Assembly (NCBI RefSeq): GCF_003334405.1
Contig: NZ_QOWM01000005.1
DNA length: 64,000 bases
Source: Escherichia coli
GTDB taxonomy: Bacteria; Pseudomonadota; Gammaproteobacteria; Enterobacterales; Enterobacteriaceae
Direction: 5' to 3' (one strand)
Below the pieces are notes generated by a model. It was given only the letters and a program-made list of their open reading frames with translations. It did not search any database and was not told the origin of the DNA. A program made the position numbers and the translations under genes. Each line of letters starts with the position of its first letter. The first letter of the stretch is position 1. This document shows positions 24,732 to 47,811 of the stretch, one piece after another.

Positions 24732-25634
24732 TTATTGATAAACAAAAGTCACGGCAATAATCGATTGCACATTCCCTGCAGTCACCTGCCCTCCGGTACG
24801 TGCGTAATTTGCCGTTAATCCCAGACTTACCGCCGAAGTCCCTACTGCTCCTAACGATACCGTGTTATTCGCTGGAATAATCGTACCGTTGCGCGTCAAC
24901 TGTACGCCGACGCCCTGTGCAGGTGAAAACGACGCGGTATTGGTGAAAATCGAGTTGCCCGCATCTGCGGTTGTGCCGGAGAGGTAATACCCCAGGTTTT
25001 GGCTTTTCGCACAATAAACGGTAAGAGGAATCGGCACTGAACCAGGGTAGTCCGGCAGAGTAACGGTGACATCACGAGCAGAAACATCGCAGCCGCCAGT
25101 GGGCACCACCACATCATTATTGGCGTAAATATTCCACACAAACTGGAAATCATCGCTGTTATAGTTGTTGGTCTGTCGCAAAATAAGCACGGCAATTAAT
25201 GAGCCAGCTTTAATCACCACCCCGCCCGCACTGCTCACAGGCGTCAAATAAAGCGCCACCGGCCACGGCTTATCCGTTCTCGAATTATAAACAACCCGCG
25301 GCGTTTCACTGGTGGTCGGAAATGGATAGCTACTGCCACTATATTTTACGGTCCCGGAAAAATTAGATAACACGCCGCCATAAGCCGAGCCTCGTTGCAG
25401 TGTGACATAATCTGTAATGGTTTCCGGGTAATCGTTATGGCAAAAGATTTGCGTCGAAAGATCCACGACCAGGTTTTGCCCCACATTCACGGCGGGCGCA
25501 AGGTTTACATAAACATTGGCGCTGCCACCGCCAATAGGGATAGCGGTGCCATTGGCGGTTTTACAGGCGAATGACCAGGCATTTACCGACCAGCCCATCA
25601 GCAGTACAGCAAACAGGTTAATAACTCGTTTCAT
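24732..25634 (-). CDS. fimH: type 1 fimbrial adhesin (mannose-binding)
   Basis: Start at MKRVI for 300 aa; FACKTANGTAIPIGGGSANVYVNLAP lectin domain. Confidence 0.9.
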   Translation of the reverse strand: MKRVINLFAVLLMGWSVNAWSFACKTANGTAIPIGGGSANVYVNLAPAVNVGQNLVVDLSTQIFCHNDYPETITDYVTLQRGSAYGGVLSNFSGTVKYSGSSYPFPTTSETPRVVYNSRTDKPWPVALYLTPVSSAGGVVIKAGSLIAVLILRQTNNYNSDDFQFVWNIYANNDVVVPTGGCDVSARDVTVTLPDYPGSVPIPLTVYCAKSQNLGYYLSGTTADAGNSIFTNTASFSPAQGVGVQLTRNGTIIPANNTVSLGAVGTSAVSLGLTANYARTGGQVTAGNVQSIIAVTFVYQ

Positions 25635-25653
25635 TACAATCATCTCTTCGGCT

Positions 25654-26157
25654 TCAGCTGTAGGTATAGGTGATGCTAATCACTGCCTGAATGGTTCCCT
25701 GAGTGGCTCCGCCATTTACCGTCAATGCTCTGACCTGTAACGGGAAGTGCGCTGATTGTGAGGAATCATCCACCTGAACTGTTTTGGTTGCGCCACTATT
25801 CAATGTGTTGCCACTGTCATCCTGTAGCTCTAACTGGATGTTTTGCGCGGTCCCCTGGTTTTTATAATATCCGGTACTGTCGGCTGCCCCGCTGAAGCTG
25901 GCAGTGACCCTCGACGTTCCCACCGGACAATTAGTCAACTCAAGCGCAACATCATGCCAGGCCGATGCCGCCCCGGCAGACATCAGACTGAAAGAATAAA
26001 GATCGCCGAGATCTACCGTGGCATTGGTGGTGGAAACCGTGCACGGTTTGGCGACGACCTTACCGTTCACCGTGATGGTGACATCGGCTGCCTGTATCGT
26101 CGCACTTGCGAGCGCCAATATTGCCGCCAATACATACCCACGTTTGCACCATTTCAT
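25654..26157 (-). CDS. fimG: type 1 fimbrial minor subunit
   Basis: 167 aa pilin-like with signal peptide. Confidence 0.9.
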   Translation of the reverse strand: MKWCKRGYVLAAILALASATIQAADVTITVNGKVVAKPCTVSTTNATVDLGDLYSFSLMSAGAASAWHDVALELTNCPVGTSRVTASFSGAADSTGYYKNQGTAQNIQLELQDDSGNTLNSGATKTVQVDDSSQSAHFPLQVRALTVNGGATQGTIQAVISITYTYS

Positions 26158-26169
26158 GAGCCTCTCCAG

Positions 26170-26700
26170 TTACTGATATTCAAGAGTGAAGGTAGCCGTG
26201 GCATTGATATGCCCCGCAGTGACAGGCACCTGTGTCGCCATTAGCCGGGCGTAAAAATTCAGCGTATTTGGTTTACCCGGCGTCAGGGTCGTCCACGAAA
26301 TCGCGGACGATGGGGCATTAATGGGTATCTGATTTTGTTGCTCATTCAGAAGCTGTATTCCCAGTCCCGCAACCGCTGACACCGTATTTTCAAGTGCAAG
26401 CAGGTTGGCATTGTGGCTATCTGCAACACCGGTAAACCCAACTTTTACGGCAGAAACGGCATTACCACAGGGTGACAGCAAAATACGAAATGGAACGACA
26501 GGAGTCGTCGCGCCAATGTTGTTAAATTGCTTCGCCGCGTTTTCCATCAGATCAACAGTAAAATTGGTTGATTCAGCGGCCACACTACAGCCGTTATCTC
26601 TGACATAGCCGCGGATAGTAATCGTGCTATCCGCAGCCAAAGCGTGACTTACCGCCAGCCACAAAAAAGCGCACAGAAGATAAAAAGGTTTGTTTCTCAT
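26170..26700 (-). CDS. fimF: type 1 fimbrial minor subunit
   Basis: 176 aa from MRNKPFYLL. Confidence 0.9.
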
Positions 26701-26709
26701 CACGCCCCC

Positions 26710-29346
26710 TTAACGACATTCAGCTGATAGCTGAGTTAATAACTGCTGCTGACTCTCTGGTGGCAGTTGATAATTGGCGACACAGTGAGCATTTTCCTCT
26801 TCTCCCCATTTCACCTGAACTTTTCCCGCTAAAGGCATTCCGCTGAGGTAAACCTGACCATTATCCGCAACAATGCCGCTACTCTGGCTACTCTCTGATG
26901 TCACCATCGCCCCAAACGGCAGCGGCTTATTATTGTGGGTTAGCGTCATGAGCAGTTTTATCCCAACGCGCGCTTTAAACTCTGCTCGCACGATCGCCCC
27001 ACGGGTGGGAACAACGTTAGCGACCGCGTTATCTAAATCGACGTTATCAGCCAGGGTATTGGTATCCAGCGCTACTCTGTTCTCCCGATATTCAGTGGCA
27101 TAAGGCAGCACGGCATAACCGCGCCAGTCGGTACGCACCCCCGTCTGGTTTTCGACTTTTGCATCTTTTGCGCCAGGCGCTTTAACAAGCACCACCGTAT
27201 CGTTTAACGGCTGCCCCAGCGTTACGCCATTGGCATGAGCCAGTACCCCACCGCTGACTCCGTAATAGAGCTGCTTAATATCATCGCTATGGCTGTAACC
27301 GATGTTGGCATTGCCGTAACCACCGCGATAATTCAGCGTGGCGTAGCCTGTACTTCCGCTATTACCATCACCTCCCCCGGCGTAACCGGTTTGCACGCTA
27401 TAGCTGAGGTTGTTGTCTTCCAGCAACGTACCGTATACACCGACCAGATTGGTCATCCGACCGTTGAGATCGTGTGACATGCTGTAACTGGCACTGGCAT
27501 GTCGCCACTGAGATTTACTGTCAGAACGCAGCCAGTGGCTGAAAGGAATATTGACGTTAAGCGCTAACATCTGATCCCGTCCTTTTTGCCAGGCGTTTTT
27601 CGTCAGGCTATAGCTGAGCGTCCAGTTGATATCTTCGAATGCAGTATTTAAACCAGCCTGGAATTGCTCATCGACATTACTCGTTCCCCAATAAGTTTGA
27701 TGGCTACCACTCAAATACAGTGTTGATGTGCGCCCGAGTTGCTGAGTAACGGTGAGTTGTAATTTCCCGCGTTTGTTATAAGCGAGATTGTAATAGTCGG
27801 TGAATTTCGGCTTAACCTGAATAACACCATCCTGTGTTTCGATGTTGTAGCCATTCATTCGACTGTATGTTGTATCAGCGAAATTAAAATATCCGCTGGT
27901 CGAATAACGGTAACCCACTAACTGAATATTCGTGCCTGATTCATTGAGCGATTTGTTATAGAGAAAACGCACCGATTGTCCGTCATGCTGACTGTCATCG
28001 GGAAGTGTGGAATTAGCCTGCGTCATATCCACAGACAGAGCGCCCAGTGCCCCCATGTTTTTCCCGATACCGAAATTAAACGCACGATAACGATCCGCCA
28101 GTTGCGTTCCACCATATATTGTCCAGCCAGCCGGAAGGCCGTGGAGTAATGTACTCTGGAAAAAGCGGGGTTTTTCCTGCTGCGCATTTCCACTACGGTA
28201 TTCTCCTGCCGTAATGGAATAACGAGTATGCCCTTCACGTTGCAAAAGCGGGACTGACGAATAGGGTACGGTAAAGATCTGCGTGCTGCCGTCAGCCTCT
28301 TTAATCGTTACCTGCAAGTCACCACTATTACCTGCGGCATAGATATCGTTGATGGTAAAAGGCCCCGGCGGCACCGTACTATTATAAATGTCATACCCAT
28401 TTTGTTTAATAGTGACCTGTGCAGTACCACGAGCAATACCGTGGATCACCGGAGCAAATCCTCTTTGGCTATCGGGTAACATATTGTCATCTGAGGCCAA
28501 TTGTGCGCCGCGAAAGTTAATACCATCGAAAATATCGCCCTGGGTATAACCATCACCCAGCGTCAGCCGGGAACGTAACGGAATTATGTCTCGCTCAAGC
28601 CAGGTATTGATATGCTGCCATTTATTTTTGCTACCTGATGAACTGTCGCTACTGTTATAACTCCAGGTGGTATTGTCGCGTAAACGCCACGCACCAATAT
28701 TTAACCCACTCTGTAGGTTTAAATATGCATAATGGCTGTTACCCCCAATCCGATTCTGTACACTATTTCCGCTGAAATTATAATTGAGCAATCCGGCATT
28801 AATACCAGGATCCCATAACTCAGGAGGAATATAACCACGCGCGCGATTACTCATAAATGCCTGAGGGATCGTCAGGTTGAGTCGCTGCTGACCAACATCC
28901 AGATGCGCAGTAGCGTCATGGATCATTGAGGTTAATGGCACGCAGGCATCATCCGCCAGCAGATTCATACCGGAGACAGAAGCCGTATTCAGCTCCATAC
29001 TTGCAAGTTGCGCGCGTGTCAGGCAGGGAACAATCCCTTGTTCACTGTCGCCCGTATTAAATGTGACATCACGCGTTGCCATATAACCATTATTCAAATA
29101 GATATCGACACGATACGTCCCTGGCGGTAATTCTTGCCCATTTTCAAAACGCGATAAATCGGCCACAGCCTGGGGATCATCCGCTAAAAAGCGCGGATTA
29201 AAATAGAGTTCGGCAGATGACAAAGGTGCCTGTGCGGCAAAAGCACAGGCGACAAAGAGCCGGACAAAAAAACCAGCCAAACGATGCTTACGAATATGCA
29301 AGCATTGTGTGTTTCGCTGGTAAAGTCTTAAATTCAGATATGACAT
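26710..29346 (-). CDS. fimD: fimbrial outer membrane usher
   Basis: 878 aa usher. Confidence 0.9.
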   Translation of the reverse strand: MSYLNLRLYQRNTQCLHIRKHRLAGFFVRLFVACAFAAQAPLSSAELYFNPRFLADDPQAVADLSRFENGQELPPGTYRVDIYLNNGYMATRDVTFNTGDSEQGIVPCLTRAQLASMELNTASVSGMNLLADDACVPLTSMIHDATAHLDVGQQRLNLTIPQAFMSNRARGYIPPELWDPGINAGLLNYNFSGNSVQNRIGGNSHYAYLNLQSGLNIGAWRLRDNTTWSYNSSDSSSGSKNKWQHINTWLERDIIPLRSRLTLGDGYTQGDIFDGINFRGAQLASDDNMLPDSQRGFAPVIHGIARGTAQVTIKQNGYDIYNSTVPPGPFTINDIYAAGNSGDLQVTIKEADGSTQIFTVPYSSVPLLQREGHTRYSITAGEYRSGNAQQEKPRFFQSTLLHGLPAGWTIYGGTQLADRYRAFNFGIGKNMGALGALSVDMTQANSTLPDDSQHDGQSVRFLYNKSLNESGTNIQLVGYRYSTSGYFNFADTTYSRMNGYNIETQDGVIQVKPKFTDYYNLAYNKRGKLQLTVTQQLGRTSTLYLSGSHQTYWGTSNVDEQFQAGLNTAFEDINWTLSYSLTKNAWQKGRDQMLALNVNIPFSHWLRSDSKSQWRHASASYSMSHDLNGRMTNLVGVYGTLLEDNNLSYSVQTGYAGGGDGNSGSTGYATLNYRGGYGNANIGYSHSDDIKQLYYGVSGGVLAHANGVTLGQPLNDTVVLVKAPGAKDAKVENQTGVRTDWRGYAVLPYATEYRENRVALDTNTLADNVDLDNAVANVVPTRGAIVRAEFKARVGIKLLMTLTHNNKPLPFGAMVTSESSQSSGIVADNGQVYLSGMPLAGKVQVKWGEEENAHCVANYQLPPESQQQLLTQLSAECR

Positions 29347-29412
29347 TATTCCTCCGGTTTAAAATCACCCGGCAGTCAATTCTTTTTATTCAGGCGAAAA
29401 ATTCCCCCTGCG

Positions 29413-30138
29413 TTATTCCATTACGCCCGTCATTTTGGGGGTAAGTGCGCCATAATCATTTATTGTTCGGTAAGTAATATTGCTTCCTGCATCAGAAGGC
29501 AATTTAACCGTGCTTTCGCCCATTGGAGGCACCAATGCATTTTCAAGAACCCGGGTTCCGGCATTCAACTCTGTTACCGTCAGGTAATAGGGTGTCGGGT
29601 TAATCAGAGTCAGAGAATTCGCGCTACGACGAAATCTTAATTTTTCTGCGGCCTGATCGGGTGGCAACGCTAATTTAGCCGGGCGATAGTACAGTTTAAT
29701 GCGGCTGATAATTGCGAGCTGTAGCGTATTCTCAGTCAATTTTGATTTATCCATTGACGGAATCGCTTTAACGTTCATCCAGAATAAACTTTCCCGATCC
29801 TGTGGCAATTGGTTATTTGTTGCATCAAGAATACGTAAGGTATTCTCTTTTTTTCCCTTCATCGCAAACAGAGGTGGCGTCACGATAAAACGACCATCCT
29901 TTACACCATCGGCATTTTCCACCCATGATTGAATTAAATAGGTGCTATTTTCATCATTATTTGTCACGGCAAGTTGCACTTGTTTTTGCCCTGCCGGATA
30001 AATTACGCGAGTCGCACCTAAGGCCACTCCCGCTTCGGCGCGTCCGGCAACCATCATTGCCATGAACATCAGGATACCTGCCAGCAAGCAGAATGTTATT
30101 TCCTGCGATTTCCTTACATTGACGTTTTTATTACTCAC
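29413..30138 (-). CDS. fimC: periplasmic fimbrial chaperone
   Basis: 241 aa PapD-like. Confidence 0.9.
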   Translation of the reverse strand: MSNKNVNVRKSQEITFCLLAGILMFMAMMVAGRAEAGVALGATRVIYPAGQKQVQLAVTNNDENSTYLIQSWVENADGVKDGRFIVTPPLFAMKGKKENTLRILDATNNQLPQDRESLFWMNVKAIPSMDKSKLTENTLQLAIISRIKLYYRPAKLALPPDQAAEKLRFRRSANSLTLINPTPYYLTVTELNAGTRVLENALVPPMGESTVKLPSDAGSNITYRTINDYGALTPKMTGVME

Positions 30139-30174
30139 TGTCCTGTTCCTGTTATCACATTATCTGCTGAACAA

Positions 30175-30714
30175 TTACTGATAGGTTAAAGAGAACCAGG
30201 CCTGGGCATTGGCGATGCCGCCAGTAACCCGACGCCCGGTAGCACGATATTTGGCGATGAAATGTAGCGAAGTAGAGCCTGAGTAAAGCCGTTTCCAGTT
30301 TGCTGGAGGACGATTAATCGGTACGAGGTTTCCTTCATCATCAAACAACGCTACGCCAATATTGGTGGCTATCCCTGGCCCCTCTCCCACGGAAAGCACA
30401 TCTGGATTTTTACCATCCGCGACACCGTGAAACGCCACACCCACACGTTCACTCACCACCGTGCTACATTCCCGTAAATGAATAACAAAAGGCACCGGTG
30501 CGCTATCTTCCCCTACCGCATGAAACCGGTTACTGCTGATTTGCCCCATATTGACCGTCATTTGTTTATCACCGGCTTCAATCCGGCAAGTTTCCGCAAT
30601 AATGACGCCCTGAAATTGCATATTTCCGCCGGGCAGCGTGGTGTTCCATTTATTTCCGGCCAGAGCAAACATTGGCAGCAACGACGCTAATAGAAATAAT
30701 CTCTTCCTTTTCAT
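30175..30714 (-). CDS. fimI: fimbrin-like protein FimI
   Basis: ORF 30175..30846 trimmed to [19 protein letters not shown] for 179 aa. Confidence 0.8.
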
Positions 30715-30778
30715 CGTTATTTTTATCGCACAAGGGTGGGCATCCCTGCCCGTAATGACGTCCCTGAACCTGGGTAGG

Positions 30779-31333
30779 TTATTGATACTGAACCTTGAAG
30801 GTCGCATCCGCATTAGCAGCACCCGGGGTTGCCTCGCCGATTGCATAATAACGCGCCTGGAACGGAATGGTGTTGGTACCGTTATTCAGGGTTGTTTGTG
30901 CACTAAATGTCGCACCGTCCAGCGTCAGCTCATTTCCTGTTCTGTCCAGTATCTGCACACCAACATTTGTTGCGCTACCCGCAGCTGAACTCTGCAGAGC
31001 CAGTACTTTAGGATGAGCACTGTCAATCGCAGTCCCCAAGAAGGCAACAGCGGCTTTTGTGGCAACACTGGTATCGCAATCATTCAGCTGAATGTTAAAA
31101 CCGACAGCAGAGCTGGTTGCTCCAGTCTGCTTCAGACTAGCGGTACGAACCTGGCCCAACTGAACGGTTTGATCAACAGATCCTGCATCAACTGCGCAAG
31201 CGGCGTTAACAACTTCCCCTTTAAAGTGAACGGTCCCACCATTTACCGTCGTGGGTGTAGTTTCAGCCAGAGCCGCTGTAGAACTCAGGGACAGAGCCGA
31301 CAGAACAACAATTGCCAGAGTTTTAATTTTCAT
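30779..31333 (-). CDS. fimA: type 1 fimbrial major subunit
   Basis: 184 aa [23 protein letters not shown]...ATFKVQYQ. Confidence 0.9.
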
Positions 31334-31452
31334 ACTGCTTTCCTTTCAAAAAACTATTTCTAAATCGACATGGGCAGTCGTTCCGTACACTTTGTTTTGT
31401 CAACGAGTTTGACTGCCAACACTGCACAGTTTCCCCCCAAAAGATGAAACAT

Positions 31453-31767
31453 TTGGGGCCATTTTGACTCATAGAGGAAAGCATCGCGCACAAACTTTTT
31501 CAGTTTATTTGTTGGCTTTATATTCTATTGTTATCTTTATTTATAGATTTTTATATTGCATGAGGTGGTTTTTGGAGAGAAGAATGAGGAAGTTGCTTCG
31601 AGACACAGAAACGTTAGCTTTACATTTAGCGGAGGTGATGTGAAATTAATTTACAAGAGAAATGATTTACATATCAAACAGTTAGATGCTTTTTGTCGTT
31701 TTATAATATTTTTATGCTTGAGAAAAAATACGTAACTTATTTATGATATGGACAGTTTTGGCCCCAA
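31453..31767. promoter_or_regulatory. fimS: fimS invertible promoter element (fim switch), apparently in the OFF orientation
   Basis: 9 bp inverted repeats TTGGGGCCA at 31453-31461 and TGGCCCCAA at 31759-31767; internal TTGAGA-N18-TATGATA promoter (31718-31748) reads toward fimE, away from fimA. Confidence 0.7.
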
Positions 31768-31814
31768 TTGTCTTGTATTTATTTGTTTTTTACCTTTACT
31801 ATCAATAAGTTAAA

Positions 31815-32411
31815 TTAAACCTCTTCTCTTTTTAATTTTTCGTTTATAAGATTATTTCTTTCCCATAATCCGGCAAAACGAGCAGCATTACTGGCGGTAT
31901 AACGCACAGTATGGCGAATATTTCGATGCCCGAGATAATCCTGAATTAAACGGGTATCTGCACCACGCTCCGCCAGTTCATAACCGCAAGCATGCCTTAA
32001 CATATGAGGATGAGTCTGCGTTACGGTTCCAGCTTCAATACCGGCATCGCGAATAATGCGATAGGCCTGCTGGCGAGAAAGCCGACTCCCGCGGCGAGAA
32101 ATAAATATAGCGTCGGTCCGGTCAGCGCCTTTCCAGTTAGCACGTTCCTGGGTCCAGCGTTCCACGGCTTCACGCTCATCAAAACGTAACGGGTGAACGG
32201 TAGAAAATCCGTTCTTCAGTCGGCGAATATTTATTCGACCTTCATTAAGGTCAAGGTCCTGATAATGCAGATCAAGCAGTTCACTAATACGCATCCCATG
32301 CCGATATGCCAACAGAATAAGACAATAATCTCTGGCTCCCGTTGCCCCGTAACAAACCGCCTGCATCATGGCCTGAACTTCTTTACCGGTAAGATAACGA
32401 CGTTTACTCAC
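31815..32411 (-). CDS. fimE: fim switch tyrosine recombinase (ON-to-OFF)
   Basis: 198 aa tyrosine recombinase. Confidence 0.9.
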   Translation of the reverse strand: MSKRRYLTGKEVQAMMQAVCYGATGARDYCLILLAYRHGMRISELLDLHYQDLDLNEGRINIRRLKNGFSTVHPLRFDEREAVERWTQERANWKGADRTDAIFISRRGSRLSRQQAYRIIRDAGIEAGTVTQTHPHMLRHACGYELAERGADTRLIQDYLGHRNIRHTVRYTASNAARFAGLWERNNLINEKLKREEV

Positions 32412-32887: not shown

Positions 32888-33490
32888 CTATAAAACAGCG
32901 TGACGCTGTCGTCCTCTGGCCCTATCCCAGATGCCGTAAAAACGCCCTGCATTGCTGGCGGTATACCAGACAGTATGACGAATATTGCGATGCCCAAGAT
33001 AATCCTGGATAAGTCGCGTATCTATTCCCATATTCGCCAAAGCAAAACCACACGAATGGCGTAACATGTGCGGATGAATCTCCAGTGACAACCCGGCATT
33101 ACCACCGGAAGTCGAGATAATATGGTAAAACTGTTGCCGAGAAAGCGGATTCCCCTTACGCGATAAAAATACCCATTCGCTCTCAGCATGCGGGTACGAA
33201 GTACGGATACTCAACCAGTTTTTTAAAGCCTGAACTTCTTTGTTCAATAGCGGGTGCGTTGTTGAAAAGCCTTTTTTTAATCGATGGATATAGATACACT
33301 TTGCCTTAAGATCAATATCCGAAATCCTCAATCGACAAATTTCACTCGCCCGGAAACCATGAATAAAACAAAGCAAAGTCAGACAATAATTACGTGCTGC
33401 ATGAGGCCCGGTATTTGCTGCTTTAAGGAGTGATTCGATTTCACTATGGGTCAGGAAGTTCCTTTTTTTGTTATCAGCCTTATTCTTCAT
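32888..33490 (-). CDS. fimB: fim switch tyrosine recombinase (bidirectional)
   Basis: 200 aa tyrosine recombinase. Confidence 0.9.
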   Translation of the reverse strand: MKNKADNKKRNFLTHSEIESLLKAANTGPHAARNYCLTLLCFIHGFRASEICRLRISDIDLKAKCIYIHRLKKGFSTTHPLLNKEVQALKNWLSIRTSYPHAESEWVFLSRKGNPLSRQQFYHIISTSGGNAGLSLEIHPHMLRHSCGFALANMGIDTRLIQDYLGHRNIRHTVWYTASNAGRFYGIWDRARGRQRHAVL

Positions 33491-40928: not shown

Positions 40929-41297
40929 TTACTTTTTCGTTTCGGGCGTCGGATAAACAGCCAGATAAACGTAACCACCGCTACCGAGAGTGTCAGCTTT
41001 GCAGGTCAGACCTTTTGCATACAGCGTGACGGTATGCTGATGGCGGGGATTCAGTTCACCGCTGGTGAGCATGAGTTCCAGTTGTTTCATCAGCAGCGGA
41101 AAGGCCTGGTCCAGGTGGTACGCATCTGCATCGCTGAACAGGCCTCTGATACCGGCGCGGTCGGCAAGGTAATGCAGGCGGTTACCCTCCTGCACCAGAC
41201 GGGCGCCGAAACAGGGCGTCACTGTGCAGGGTAGTCTCCACCAGGGATGGTCGTCATTGTCATCGGGATGCGTTGTCCCGGAAAGTGTGTCTGACAC
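40929..41297 (-). CDS. CbeA/YeeU-family antitoxin
   Basis: ORF 40929..41405 trimmed to GTG start (VSDTLSGTT...) for 122 aa; [34 protein letters not shown]. Confidence 0.8.
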
Positions 41298-41459
41298 GAT
41301 AAAATCCTCACAGAAAATCGGTGAATGATAGTTTAACGATGACGGGTCAGCCGGCGCGCAGACCGGCTTCGGTAAAGGTGTATTCGTTGATGAGCAGGAC
41401 CTCATCCACAGCGGCGTCTGAGCTCAGCCAGTCGTACTCGTTTTCCGGGTGACGGAACA

Positions 41460-41681
41460 TCAGTTCAGGGTGACGCTCATCAGCCGGACATACGGACCAA
41501 AACTGTCCTTACGGCGTTCTGCAAACACGGCCAGCACACCGGGAATATCCTGCACTTCACGACCGGTATACGCTTCAGCACTGCCGTGCCAGCGGTATTT
41601 GCCGGTACAGAACGGAAAAAGACGGGATGCCGGATGCTGACGGTGAATACGCATGGCTTCGCCACGGGTGATGATTTTCAT
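41460..41681 (-). CDS. YeeT-like (DUF987) protein
   Basis: 73 aa MKIITRGEAMRIHRQHPASRLFPFCTGKYRWHGSAEAYTGREVQDIPG... Confidence 0.65.
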   Translation of the reverse strand: MKIITRGEAMRIHRQHPASRLFPFCTGKYRWHGSAEAYTGREVQDIPGVLAVFAERRKDSFGPYVRLMSVTLN

Positions 41682-42149
41682 AGTGGGATACCTCTGAAGA
41701 CAGAAGATAAAAGTGAAAACAGGTGTGATGTGGTTGTGACGGGTTAAAGCAGACCATGTTCGGCAAAGGAGAAAACCTGGCTGCCACCGACTATCAGATG
41801 GTCCGGCACCCGGATAGCTGGAGGTACCGTCATGAGAGTTGAGCAGAATAATTTCAGGGACATGTTCTCCGTTTATCTCTCCGGCCCGCCGCAGACGCAG
41901 CATGTGTTTTGTGTATCCCCGGCGGCCCGGGTCGCGCACACGGGTCTGGCAGGCGAAGAATGGCTGAAAGCCTTCCCGCTGCAGGCTTTCCAGTACGGTG
42001 ATGGTGGGGATGTACGTATAGTTCTGGCTTCGGGACGTGTGTTTATCTTCCCCGAAAATCCCCGGCACATAGTGCATCAGTTCTTCGTGTGTCAGCGGAC
42101 GGTCACGGCGTATCTGGTTCGCATAACCAAAACGACTGGCTAGTCGCAT
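41682..42149 (-). pseudogene. 5' fragment of a DUF932-like (YfjQ-type) gene, frameshifted and fused in-frame to the yeeT-like ORF
   Basis: First ~120 codons of ORF 41460..42149 (MRLASRFGYANQIRRDRPL...LLNSHDGTSSY) look DUF932-like, then lose resemblance. Confidence 0.4.
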
Positions 42150-42560
42150 AATTTGCTCCTTATCGGTGGTTAAGATTTACTGGTGTAATAAATGAAAAAG
42201 CCACGTCTCCCGGAGAAGACGCGGCCTGATGGGTGAAATGAATGACGTTTATTGTCTGAGAAGACCGTCACTGGCGAGCCGCGTATTAAGCACCTTTCCG
42301 GCATCGGGTTCAGAATTCCGGCAGCGCCAGCGTCGCTGACCTTCCGCGTTGCGGATAACCCGACGGAAATGCATTCCCGGGTCATCCTGGATAAACACAT
42401 TGCGGTAAGCGGTTATGACAGCAACCGCCTGCCCGTATGAGAAAGATCCTTCAGCCAGGACATACTCTGTGTAACCCGGCATATCTGTTTTCTCCTGATA
42501 AATAAAAAGCCTCTGCCACGCGTTGTGACAGAGGCTGAAGCATGAAACTGACTTCAGGGA

Positions 42561-43016
42561 TCAGTTAACGTTTTTTCCGGAAACGGTAATCAGCAGTGGA
42601 TGGTAGTCCTGGGGATTGAAAACCGATAACGGCAGACTGACACGATGGCCGTTACTTTCTTCAGTTGCTTTGATGATTTCGGTTGTGGCGACATTTTCCA
42701 CGCACTCCGTTTCCAGAAATGCGTCTGTGGTTCGCGTGGCATTACTGTCACCAAAAGCTTCCGTTTCCATTTTTCTGGTCACCAGCGTCTGACCATATTT
42801 GTCTTTGAGTTGCAGAGTGATGGTGAGGGGGCCAAATCCTTCATCGTTTCCGCCATTATCCAGCCGGAACTGGTAAGCACAAATATTTCCCGGGAGCCAT
42901 ATCGTATCTGTATTGCGTATACTGATGTAACGTTGATCCTGTGCCCGGAGTGGGGCAGACCACGTTAACCCCAGAATGAAGGCGGTAATCATGCAGGTTT
43001 TGAACAGGTGAATCAT
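42561..43016 (-). CDS. hypothetical secreted protein
   Basis: 151 aa with N-terminal signal-peptide-like hydrophobic segment ending ...APLRAQ. Confidence 0.45.
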   Translation of the reverse strand: MIHLFKTCMITAFILGLTWSAPLRAQDQRYISIRNTDTIWLPGNICAYQFRLDNGGNDEGFGPLTITLQLKDKYGQTLVTRKMETEAFGDSNATRTTDAFLETECVENVATTEIIKATEESNGHRVSLPLSVFNPQDYHPLLITVSGKNVN

Positions 43017-43091
43017 GGTATTTACCTCTCTGAGTCATGACGATGACACTGACAAATCAGGTGATAAAGCGTAAAAGGCGCAGAATAGCCG

Positions 43092-44057
43092 TTATGCCGG
43101 TAACTCCGGGGGTAATGCTTCTTCCAGTCGGTTAACCATATTGCCGAGATGGGATGCATCATATTCCATGACGGGGCGTTGCCTGATGATACTGACCACC
43201 AGTGGTTTGATTAACATATTGGTCGCGGCCCGTTGTTGTATACCGGCGGCGAAAATGATCTCCAGAGCATTCTGATCGATAACACGGGCCAGATTCTCGT
43301 TCAGATTTTCAATCTCATGTCCGGTCAGCAGGAAACTGCCGGCAAGCCATGTCACCTGCTCCTGAATCATTGCCAGAATTTTGACGCGATCTTCTTCAAC
43401 CAGCGCTCCGGCAATTTTTCCTGATACAGCGGAGGCAATCATTCCCCCCAGAACACCGCCAACCACACGCCCTGTCAGTGCACCAAATGGTCCCAGTGGA
43501 CTGAACAGTATTCCGCCCGCCACTGACCCGACAGCACCACCTGCCACACCGGAAGATGCCACGGCAAGATTCCTGATGAACTGCGTACCGGAGATCCGTC
43601 CCCGCAACATTTTGATCATGTCAGGGCCGGTTGTGACAGCTACCAGTGCCAGAGATGTCACCAGCGTACCCTTCATCACTTTGTTCAGGGCACTGATATT
43701 TCCTGCACCGGTCCCCTTCTGAAGAGCCAGTCGAACAGTCGGGCTGGCAGTCGAAAAATCAATGTGCTTCAGCATACCCTGAACAACACTGAGCCGGTGG
43801 AGTTGCTGGGTTGTGACGTAGACAGCCAGTGTGCGGGTGAAGGTTTTTCCTGCCTGGACAGCAGCTGTCTGCAGGGCAGCATCGCGATCGCCGGTGCTGA
43901 GCCAGAAGACCGATGCCGTCAGGGCAAAACTGATCCCTCCGGCCGCCAGACTGACAACCGAACCCTCGGCAATATCATAAGTGACCGATTCGATGGTCCC
44001 GAACCGGGTGATATTACGGGCCTGAGTATAAGTCAGATGAGCCATACACGCGGCTTC
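43092..44057 (-). pseudogene. C-terminal fragment of an unidentified glycine-zipper-rich island protein, fused in-frame to a truncated IS66 tnpC
   Basis: Last ~320 codons of ORF 43092..45068; [41 protein letters not shown]; unlike IS66 TnpC C-termini. Confidence 0.35.
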
Positions 44058-45950
44058 CGTTATTCTGCCGGATTCGTATAACGCCCGGTAACCACCGTAA
44101 GCATCGGCCTGAAGCACACCGCTGTAACCGGCCAGGTGATTTTGTGGATGGATACCTTTCCGGTCCGGACTGTACGCGAACCAGACCGCCGGGGGCATCT
44201 GTGAACCGGCGTTACGGTCATCACGGACGTAGACCCACAGCCGGGCTGTCCGGGTTTTACCGCTGCCCGGCTCCTGGACCGGGACGGGGATATCATCAGC
44301 ATGGACTTTACCGGGCATCAGCACATACTGGCGCAGGACGTCATACAGCGGCTCCAGCAGTTCAGCAACAGCACCTGTCCAGCGCCCCAGTGTGGCACGG
44401 CTCAGCTCCACTCCCTGACGACGGTATATTTCTGACTGGCGGTATAACGGCAGATGGTCTGCATATTTCCCGGTGACAACATGGGCCAGAAGCCCCGCTC
44501 CGGCATAACTGCGTGCAATGGGTTTTGAAGGTACTGGTGCCTGCACGATATGGTCGCACCGGCAACAGGCCTGTTTCGGACGTTGTGTTTCGATAACCTT
44601 AAAGGCGCTGCTGATAAGCTCCAGTTGCTCTGACACATCACATCCCAGAGAACTGAGTTCACCACCACAGGCAGGACAGCATTCCTCTTCCGGCCGGATA
44701 ACCCGGGTTTCACGGGGAAGTGAGGCCGGTAACGGTTTACGGGCTGAAGACTGGCGCAGGGCGGATGGCAGTACCGGGTCATATTGCTCACCCAGCGTTT
44801 CCGCCATTTCTTCCTGAAGTGCGCTGATTCGCTCCTGTGCTTCCTGTATCTGCCGTTCGGTTTTTGCACGAAGTTTTTCTGAGCTTTTACCGAACTGCAT
44901 ACGTTGCAGTTTCGCAACCAGCGCCTTCAGCCGGTTGATTTCGGAAGCATAAGCCGCCACCCGCTGTGAGAGCAGGCGGTTGTATTCAGCCATCTGGCGG
45001 ATGGTGTCCTGTTGCGTCTGCAACAGTGCCCGCAGGCGGGCGTTCTCATGAGCAAGTGAGGTGTCCATATCCTCACTTTACAACGGGTTATATGCGGATT
45101 CCAGCGCGTTCCGTTCGTTTCGGGTGCTTCCAGTTGATACCTTCAAGAAGCATGGATAACTGAGCCGGAGTAAGGTGCACCTTGCCGTCACGGGTGACTG
45201 GCCAGACGAAGCGGCCCCGCTCCAGGCGTTTGGTGAAGAGGCACAGTCCGTCACTGTCAGCCCACAACACTTTTATCTGGTCACCCCGGCGTCCGCGGAA
45301 GATGAACAGGTGTCCGGAGAACGGGTCATCCTTCAGGACGTTCTGAACTTTTGATGCCAGGCCGTTAAAGCCATTTCGCATATCGGTGATACCTGCAACC
45401 AGCCAGATACGCGAACCTGCAGGGAGAGATATCATCAGTGGCTGCTCCCTTTTATTTCGCGGATAAGTGTCTGTAATAACGCCGGCGTCAGTTTACCTTT
45501 AAGCCTGAGAGTTCCGGCCGGCAGAACCAGCTCACAACACAGACTGTCGGACGGTGTATTTATCTGCTCTGGTTCCTGTGCGGGGGCCGGGATTTTATTA
45601 TCCGGCTCCGGCGTTAACGTCACGGGAAGCAGTGCCGGCATATTTTTTCCGGAAGGCAGCAGGCCACCTTTCCGGTATTGATGGCGCCAGTTGAAGAGCA
45701 GGTTATCGTTGATTCCGTTTTCCCGGGCGATCTGCGCCACACAGGCTCCGGGCTGCAGTGACTGCTCCACTAAGGCGATTTTAAACTCATAAGGGAAGTT
45801 GGGCCGCCGGGGACGTTTTTTTACCACGGGGGCTTCGGATATAACGGTGCTTTCAGGACGTACGACTGGTACCGTGGAAAATTGTCCGTAACCCTCAGTA
45901 TCAGCTGTGAGGTAACGTTCCGGCACGGGACGCTCCGCTTCAATGGCAAT
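44058..45950 (-). mobile_element. IS66-family element, copy 1, truncated at the tnpC 3' side
   Basis: tnpA-like (45435..45926), tnpB (45088..45435; WLVAGITDMRNGFNGL) and first ~337 codons of tnpC (CCPACGG zinc-finger, through EAACMAHL); boundaries approximate. Confidence 0.65.
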
Positions 45951-47811
45951 GTCAGCGAAAAGCTCCTGACTCTGCTGATACAGGAACTGAAGCGATGATC
46001 CCGTTACCTTCCGGGACCAAAATTTGGCTGGTTGCCGGTATCACCGATATGAGAAATGGCTTCAACGGCCTGGCTGCGAAAGTACAAACGGCGCTGAAAG
46101 ACGATCCCATGTCCGGCCATGTTTTCATTTTCCGGGGCCGCAGCGGCAGTCAGGTTAAACTGCTGTGGTCCACCGGTGACGGACTGTGCCTCCTGACCAA
46201 ACGGCTGGAGCGTGGGCGCTTCGCCTGGCCGTCAGCCCGTGATGGCAAAGTGTTCCTTACGCAGGCGCAGCTGGCGATGCTGCTGGAAGGTATCGACTGG
46301 CGACAGCCCAAGCGGCTGCTGACCTCCCTGACCATGCTGTAAATCTCTTTATCCTGGTTGTCACAGAATAAGCCCGGTAAAATACGGGCTTATGAACGAC
46401 ATCTCTTCTGACGACATCTTCCTGCTAAAACAGCGCCTGGCCGAACAGGAAGCGCTGATCCACGCCCTGCAGGAAAAGCTGAGCAACCGGGAGCGCGAAA
46501 TAGACCATCTGCAGGCGCAGCTGGATAAACTCCGCCGGATGAACTTCGGCAGTCGTTCCGAAAAAGTCTCCCGCCGTATCGCACAAATGGAAGCCGATCT
46601 GAACCGGCTTCAGAAAGAGAGCGATACGCTGACTGGTAGGGTGTATGACCCGGCAGTACAGCGTCCGTTGCGTCAGACCCGCACCCGTAAGCCGTTCCCT
46701 GAATCACTACCCCGTGACGAAAAGCGACTGTTGCCTGCGGCGCCGTGCTGCCCGAACTGCGGCGGTTCACTGAGCTATCTGGGCGAGGATACCGCCGAAC
46801 AGCTGGAGTTGATGCGTAGCGCATTCCGGGTTATCCGGACGGTACGGGAAAAACATGCCTGTACTCAGTGCGATGCCATCGTGCAGGCACCTGCACCTTC
46901 GCGGCCCATCGAGCGGGGTATCGCCGGACCGGGGCTGCTGGCCCGCGTGCTGACCTCGAAGTATGCAGAGCACACCCCGCTGTATTGCCAGTCAGAAATA
47001 TACGGCCGGCAAGGTGTGGAGCTGAGCCGTTCACTGCTGTCAGGCTGGGTGGATGCATGCTGCCGGCTGCTGTCTCCGCTGGAAGAGGCGCTTCATGGCT
47101 ATGTCATGACTGACGGCAAACTCCATGCCGATGATACCCCGGTCCAGGTACTGCTGCCGGGTAATAAGAAGACGAGGACCGGGCGGTTGTGGGCGTATGT
47201 TCGTGATGACCGCAATGCCGGGTCAGCGTTGGCACCTGCAGTGTGGTTCGCTTACAGCCCGGACAGAAAAGGCATCCATCCGCAGACTCATCTTGCTTGC
47301 TTCAGCGGTGTGCTGCAAGCGGATGCGTACGCCGGGTTCAACGAGCTGTATCGCAATGGTGGGATAACGGAAGCTGCCTGCTGGGCTCATGCCCGCCGAA
47401 AGATCCACGATGTGCACGTCCGCATCCCGTCAGCACTGACGGAAGAAGCCCTGGAGCAGATCGGTCAGTTGTACGCCATAGAGGCGGATATAAGGGGAAT
47501 GCCGGCAGAGCAGCGGCTTGCTGAACGTCAGCGAAAAACGAAACCGCTGTTGAAATCCCTGGAAAGCTGGTTGCGTGAAAAGATGAAGACCCTGTTCTTC
47601 GGCTCTGGCCATGGTGGTGAGCGGGGAGCGCTACTGTACAGCCTGATCGGGACGTGCAAACTGAATGACGTGGATCCAGAAAGCTACCTTCGCCATGTGC
47701 CTGGCGTCATAGCAGACTGGCCGGTCAACCGGGTCAGCGAACTGCTTCCGTGGCGCATAGCACTGCCAGCTGAATAACACATCCCCGTCAATACGGCCCT
47801 CGCTGTACGCT
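45951..47811 (+). mobile_element. IS66-family element, copy 2, lacking most of tnpA
   Basis: tnpA C-terminal tail (...EKLLTLLIQELKR), tnpB 45995..46342, tnpC 46392..47777 (461 aa), terminal GTAAGCG-type end at about 47805-47811; TnpB only ~75% identical to copy 1. Confidence 0.65.

Follow-up and report, generated by a model that had tools for sequence, protein, structure and literature searches.

Results

The fim locus

The window analysed here is a 64-kb stretch of DNA from Escherichia coli. It harbors the genes for type 1 fimbriae in the order fimB-fimE-fimS-fimA-fimICDFGH on the minus strand (Table 1), and the nearly identical annotated locus of FDAARGOS_1077 is arranged alike. Apart from fimB and fimE themselves, tblastn with the two proteins detected no recombinase paralogue in the window. 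The product of fimA is a divergent antigenic variant: it shares 166 of 183 residues with the MG1655 pilin and has 2 aa inserted after the signal peptide. Just downstream of fimA (30734..30768, minus strand) lies an exact copy of fimR2, a 35-nt small RNA of MG1655; an Rfam scan of the whole window gave no match, fimR2 included, and a tRNA scan of the same stretch found none. The fimG gene (25654..26157, minus strand) is present as a full 167-aa ORF, as in K-12. The RefSeq annotation of FDAARGOS_1077 has the same gene start later, as a 'fimbrial protein' of only 444 bp. This mismatch in length likely reflects a difference in start-codon annotation and not a defect.

Table 1 Genes, repeats, promoter and assay landmarks of the fim switch region in the window.
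Feature	Position	Strand	Remarks
fimI, fimC, fimD, fimF, fimG, fimH	24732..30714	-	all open, from ORF lists and the FDAARGOS_1077 annotation
fimA, major pilin	30779..31333	-	184-aa ORF; uncoupled from its promoter in phase OFF
fimS, invertible element, phase-OFF	31453..31767	-	315 bp including both repeats; from MG1655 homology and in-silico HinfI assay
IRR, fimA-proximal 9-bp inverted repeat	31453..31461		TTGGGGCCA on the plus strand
HinfI site (GACTC), single, near IRR	31466..31470		landmark of the published phase assay
BstUI site (CGCG), single	31485..31488		landmark in the BstUI assay of the Dorman laboratory; distance to the outer edge of IRR, 34 bp
candidate IHF site II (consensus match), within fimS	31672..31684	+	TATCAAACAGTTA, fits WATCAANNNNTTR
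PfimA	31718..31747	+	-35 TTGAGA (31718..31723), 18-nt spacer, -10 TATGAT (31742..31747); score 10/12
IRL, fimE-proximal 9-bp inverted repeat	31759..31767		TTGGGGCCA on the minus strand
candidate IHF site I (consensus match), directly outside IRL	31800..31812	+	TATCAATAAGTTA
fimE, tyrosine recombinase, ON-to-OFF	31815..32411	-	198-aa ORF, intact; 100% identical to MG1655 FimE
fimB, tyrosine recombinase, both directions	32888..33490	-	200-aa ORF, intact; 100% identical to MG1655 FimB

Borders and identity of the invertible element

The 64-kb window has two copies of TTGGGGCCA and no more, one on each strand. The inverted pair encloses 315 bp and its outer edges coincide exactly with 31453..31767. 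The initial annotation had described the 9-bp inverted repeats as intact, and both copies are indeed exact. Taken alone, the pair is statistically unremarkable, since two or more matches to the 9-mer were also found in 17 of 100 shuffled sequences. The repeats by themselves are weak evidence; the identification of fimS rests on homology. The segment is located within the 481-bp gap between fimE and fimA, is syntenic with its counterpart in MG1655 and is identical to the fimS of that strain at 304 of 315 positions in the same orientation, as opposed to 177 of 347 in the inverted alignment; the flanks match too. Inverted repeats of 9 bp are part of the published definition of fimS (PMC2647292). 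The expected element is a segment of about 314 bp between perfect copies of such repeats, and 315 bp were found; its place is the fimE-fimA gap, and the recombinase genes fimB and fimE are directly upstream.

IHF sites are expected at two places, one outside the element adjoining IRL and one inside it. Over the 64-kb window, the IHF consensus is matched no more than three times. Two of these matches are at fimS, in exactly the expected positions, where they may represent IHF sites I and II (Table 1). This arrangement has been published: one IHF site is within fimS and IHF-1 is adjacent to IRL (bioRxiv 10.1101/2022.09.20.508701). An AT-rich stretch at about 31500..31570 adjoins the BstUI site and falls in the published LRP-2 area (bioRxiv 10.1101/2022.09.20.508701).

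The promoter in the switch is directed away from fimA

A consensus scan of 31300..31900 for sigma-70-like promoters returned the element designated PfimA as the top match, with 10 of 12 positions conserved. It ends 11 nt from IRL, the fimE-proximal repeat, and reads rightward toward the 3' end of fimE and away from fimA. The 30-nt sequence is identical in the window, in MG1655 and in DH1Ec169, and in the latter it reads toward fimA. The predicted fimA promoter is thus found inside the element as TTGAGA-N18-TATGAT, identical to K-12. We take these hexamers to be those of the experimentally mapped PfimA (Olsen & Klemm 1994); a literature search pairing the promoter hexamers with fimA yielded no relevant paper. 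Three additional matches with 9 of 12 positions are also located inside fimS, and the total of four sites is not above chance, given that 2.3 ± 1.6 are expected from shuffled sequence. The initial annotation had regarded PfimA as the only good sigma-70-like element of the switch, next to the fimE-proximal repeat and reading toward fimE. Its place and its direction hold, but 'only' should be replaced by 'best', because of the three weaker matches in fimS. An intrinsic terminator was not found in 31300..31900.

By definition, PfimA is directed away from fimA or disconnected from it in phase OFF, and is directed toward fimA in phase ON (PMC2647292; bioRxiv 10.1101/2022.09.20.508701). In the window PfimA is on the plus strand and points to fimE, while fimA is on the minus strand and lies to the left. 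Therefore, the fimS of the window is in the OFF orientation. For the annotation of this assembly this means that the fimA promoter belongs on the strand opposite to fimA, and that a missing promoter directly upstream of fimA is no defect.

In-silico phase assays

Orientation can also be read from a published assay that is independent of any promoter call. Amplification with the primers Phase_L and Phase_R followed by digestion with HinfI gives a fragment of 359 bp for fimOFF and of 489 bp for fimON (PMC4349694). When this assay was simulated, the window gave an amplicon of 560 bp that was cut into 359 + 201 bp, which is the OFF fragment, and MG1655 gave the same pattern. DH1Ec169 gave 76 + 484 bp, a pattern of the ON type. 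The ON band of 484 bp compares with 489 bp in the publication; this gap may be due to a strain difference, as the published sizes are from work with UTI89. A second assay, used in the Dorman laboratory, employs BstUI and yields 539 + 187 bp for OFF and 433 + 293 bp for ON, with a BstUI site that was published as being between LRP-2 and IRR (bioRxiv 10.1101/2022.09.20.508701). By simple arithmetic, the site in the window would fit the OFF sizes if the primers were to lie 259 bp upstream and 153 bp downstream of the switch.

The sigma-70-like matches in the switch raise the question of whether the promoter was miscalled, so that the orientation is truly ON and fimA is in reality transcribed from another of these matches. 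One match with 9 of 12 positions (31677..31648) is indeed on the minus strand of the switch and directed toward fimA. However, such weak promoter-like matches are no commoner here than in shuffled sequence, the HinfI assay yields the published OFF fragment whatever promoter is called, and MG1655, with which the window is colinear, itself has the OFF pattern in this assay. The probability of an ON orientation is therefore vanishingly small, and the in-silico HinfI pattern rules it out.

Alignment with a reference fimS in both orientations, the check suggested along with the initial annotation, gave colinearity of the window with MG1655 and a promoter toward fimE; a correspondence to ON was not obtained. 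The direction of PfimA, the colinearity with MG1655 and the in-silico HinfI pattern thus agree on the phase-OFF orientation that had been proposed. We are highly confident that what was assembled here is fimS, the classical inverton of the type 1 fimbrial (fim) operon in E. coli, and that it is in phase OFF. The feature corresponds to the textbook fim switch, in the orientation that is its default, and is as such already known.

Comparison with other fimS alleles

The fimS of MG1655 (NC_000913.3, between fimE b4313 and fimA b4314) resembles that of the window in its position, in the 9-bp repeats, the 30-nt promoter, the OFF orientation and the result of the in-silico phase assay, and the accompanying FimB and FimE proteins are identical. 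It differs in length, having the canonical 314 bp and not 315 bp, and by 10 substitutions. The extra nucleotide of the window is an A in the A-run 31755..31758 just inside IRL (TTGGGGCCAAAAC vs TTGGGGCCAAAC in the comparison of the window with K-12). It is positioned between IRL and the start region of PfimA, in DNA that has been described as the internal half-site bound by the recombinases. A 60-bp stretch with the extra A was recovered unchanged from about 603 of 4618 complete E. coli genomes (~13%); in most of the remaining genomes it is shorter by one base. The extra-A allele is a common minority allele and is not novel.

Two genomes with fimS in phase ON, DH1Ec169 (NZ_CP012127.1) and strain 102651 (NZ_CP189662.1), have the same element between the same flanks. 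In DH1Ec169 the switch is inverted, being at 314/314 positions the exact inverse of that in MG1655, and the HinfI pattern differs from that of the window as described above. Its promoter is beside IRR and reads into fimA, which bears out the expectation that the ON orientation places the promoter next to the fimA-proximal repeat. Strain 102651 matches the window allele, once this is inverted, at 100%. A synthetic inverted form of the window sequence found three complete genomes with 100% identity over 481 bp and many with 99.8%. Since the inverted form is found at 100% in three genomes, the same allele, including the extra A, exists in both orientations. Judged by this genome comparison, the element appears to be capable of inversion.

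Orientation of the switch in complete E. coli genomes

The 481-bp gap between fimE and fimA was used as query in a megablast census of 5426 complete E. coli genomes, in which an alignment covering at least 80% of the query was counted as colinear. The gap was matched in 4720 genomes; the remaining 706 gave no megablast match to it. Among the 4720, 4450 were colinear with the window (OFF) and 245 with the synthetic inverted form (ON). About 25 had the gap in neither colinear form and are disrupted or truncated. OFF is hence the assembled state in ~94% of the genomes that carry the locus, the K-12 reference included, and ON in ~5%. It has been described that the dominance of FimE, which strongly favours the ON-to-OFF reaction over the reverse and overrides FimB, leaves most wild-type cells non-piliated (PMC9096935). 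If chance decided which orientation is assembled, a ratio of about 50:50 would be expected; the split of 94% to 5% matches the OFF bias driven by FimE, which argues that assembled orientations track biology. The census (4450 OFF, 245 ON and 25 other in 4720 assemblies) reproduces this bias and is a by-product that can be reused.

The neighbouring genomic island

To the right of the fim genes, the window deviates from its relatives at two places. At 41815/41816 it is devoid of a segment of 1,443 bp that is found in all closest relatives and that in FDAARGOS_1077 comprises the greater part of a JAB-domain gene, an antirestriction gene and the end portion of a DUF932 gene. The junction has almost no microhomology and creates a fused ORF of 229 aa (41460..42149). 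A true deletion could account for the missing 1,443 bp, as could a collapse between paralogous island genes during assembly. Searched as one contiguous match, 41000..47000 of the window was found in no complete E. coli genome. The island between the nanS-side remnants and fecI (44039..45890, up to ~50000) also differs from FDAARGOS_1077: there, about 16 kb with IS21, agn43, yfjI-like genes and others occupy the place of about 1.85 kb in the window.

Discussion

FimB and FimE are tyrosine recombinases that act in a complex shaped by IHF and Lrp. According to the accepted mechanism, FimB, which works in both directions, and FimE, which is dominant and turns ON to OFF, cleave and rejoin the DNA within the 9-bp repeats. 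In OFF cells fimAICDFGH is cut off from PfimA and transcription from this promoter does not reach it. The orientation of the switch also feeds back on the recombinase: only in phase OFF does a Rho-dependent terminator located in fimS fall downstream of fimE, where it shortens and destabilises the fimE mRNA and thereby lowers FimE (PMC2647292).

What does the orientation in the assembly tell about the cells that were sequenced? Wild-type E. coli in ordinary culture is OFF by default, but pili persist for some generations after cells have switched OFF, so that OFF cells need not be afimbriate. The initial annotation had concluded that the sequenced population was predominantly afimbriate. An assembly is a single consensus orientation and holds no ratio of ON to OFF. 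Provided that this consensus mirrors the majority of cells, it can reasonably be inferred that the sequenced culture was mostly OFF and non-piliated. This fits the dominance of FimE (PMC9096935) as well as the practice of using shaken overnight cultures as primarily fimOFF starting cultures (PMC4349694). The alternative is a substantially mixed culture from which the assembler reported one path, in which case the orientation would say little about the cells. Phase variation does make any culture a mixture, and the junctions at 41815/41816 and 44039..45890, which are contiguous in no complete genome, may bear on the quality of this assembly. On the other hand, assemblers and polishers follow the majority path, and 94% OFF against 5% ON over 4720 independent assemblies is what the bias driven by FimE predicts. 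We consider a substantially mixed culture unlikely and favor a culture that was mainly OFF.

A culture may also be OFF for the reason that its switch is genetically locked, either by an internal deletion of the O157:H7 type or by the loss of FimB. O157:H7-type fimS alleles, a finding attributed to Roe et al. 2001, reportedly do not have about 16 bp inside the switch and are locked OFF. They share the locus and the OFF orientation with the window, and the OFF orientation alone cannot tell a locked from a switchable element. Moreover, alleles that are about 17 bp shorter do occur in some large-genome bovine isolates, and in the window the extra A is in the recombinase half-site region adjoining IRL. 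Against a lock stand the two exact 9-bp repeats, the full length of 315 bp with no internal deletion, and FimB and FimE proteins that are 100% identical to those of K-12. In contrast to the deletion alleles, that of the window is known in both orientations, as the identical allele was assembled ON in three genomes (100%, and many more at 99.8%), and the 60-bp stretch with the extra A recurs unchanged in hundreds of genomes (~603/4618). Hence, the switch does not look locked. As far as genome comparison can tell, a locked-OFF switch is very unlikely, and it was set aside in view of the intact repeats, the full length, the K-12-identical recombinases and the two orientations seen. In the genome represented by the window, the type 1 fimbrial system is apparently intact and able to switch, and it is in the OFF state that is its default.

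It is tempting to ask whether the extra A could alter the switching rates of FimB and FimE, or their directional bias, relative to the 314-bp allele of K-12. We consider this improbable. If it were true, length alleles of fimS would tune the frequency of piliation in a heritable manner.

Length variation of another kind was seen in NZ_CP028695.1 and NZ_AP042591.1, both from large-genome bovine isolates. Their gap between fimE and fimA is about 17 bp shorter (463 vs 480 bases, 94% identity), which is consistent with an internal fimS deletion of the O157:H7 type.
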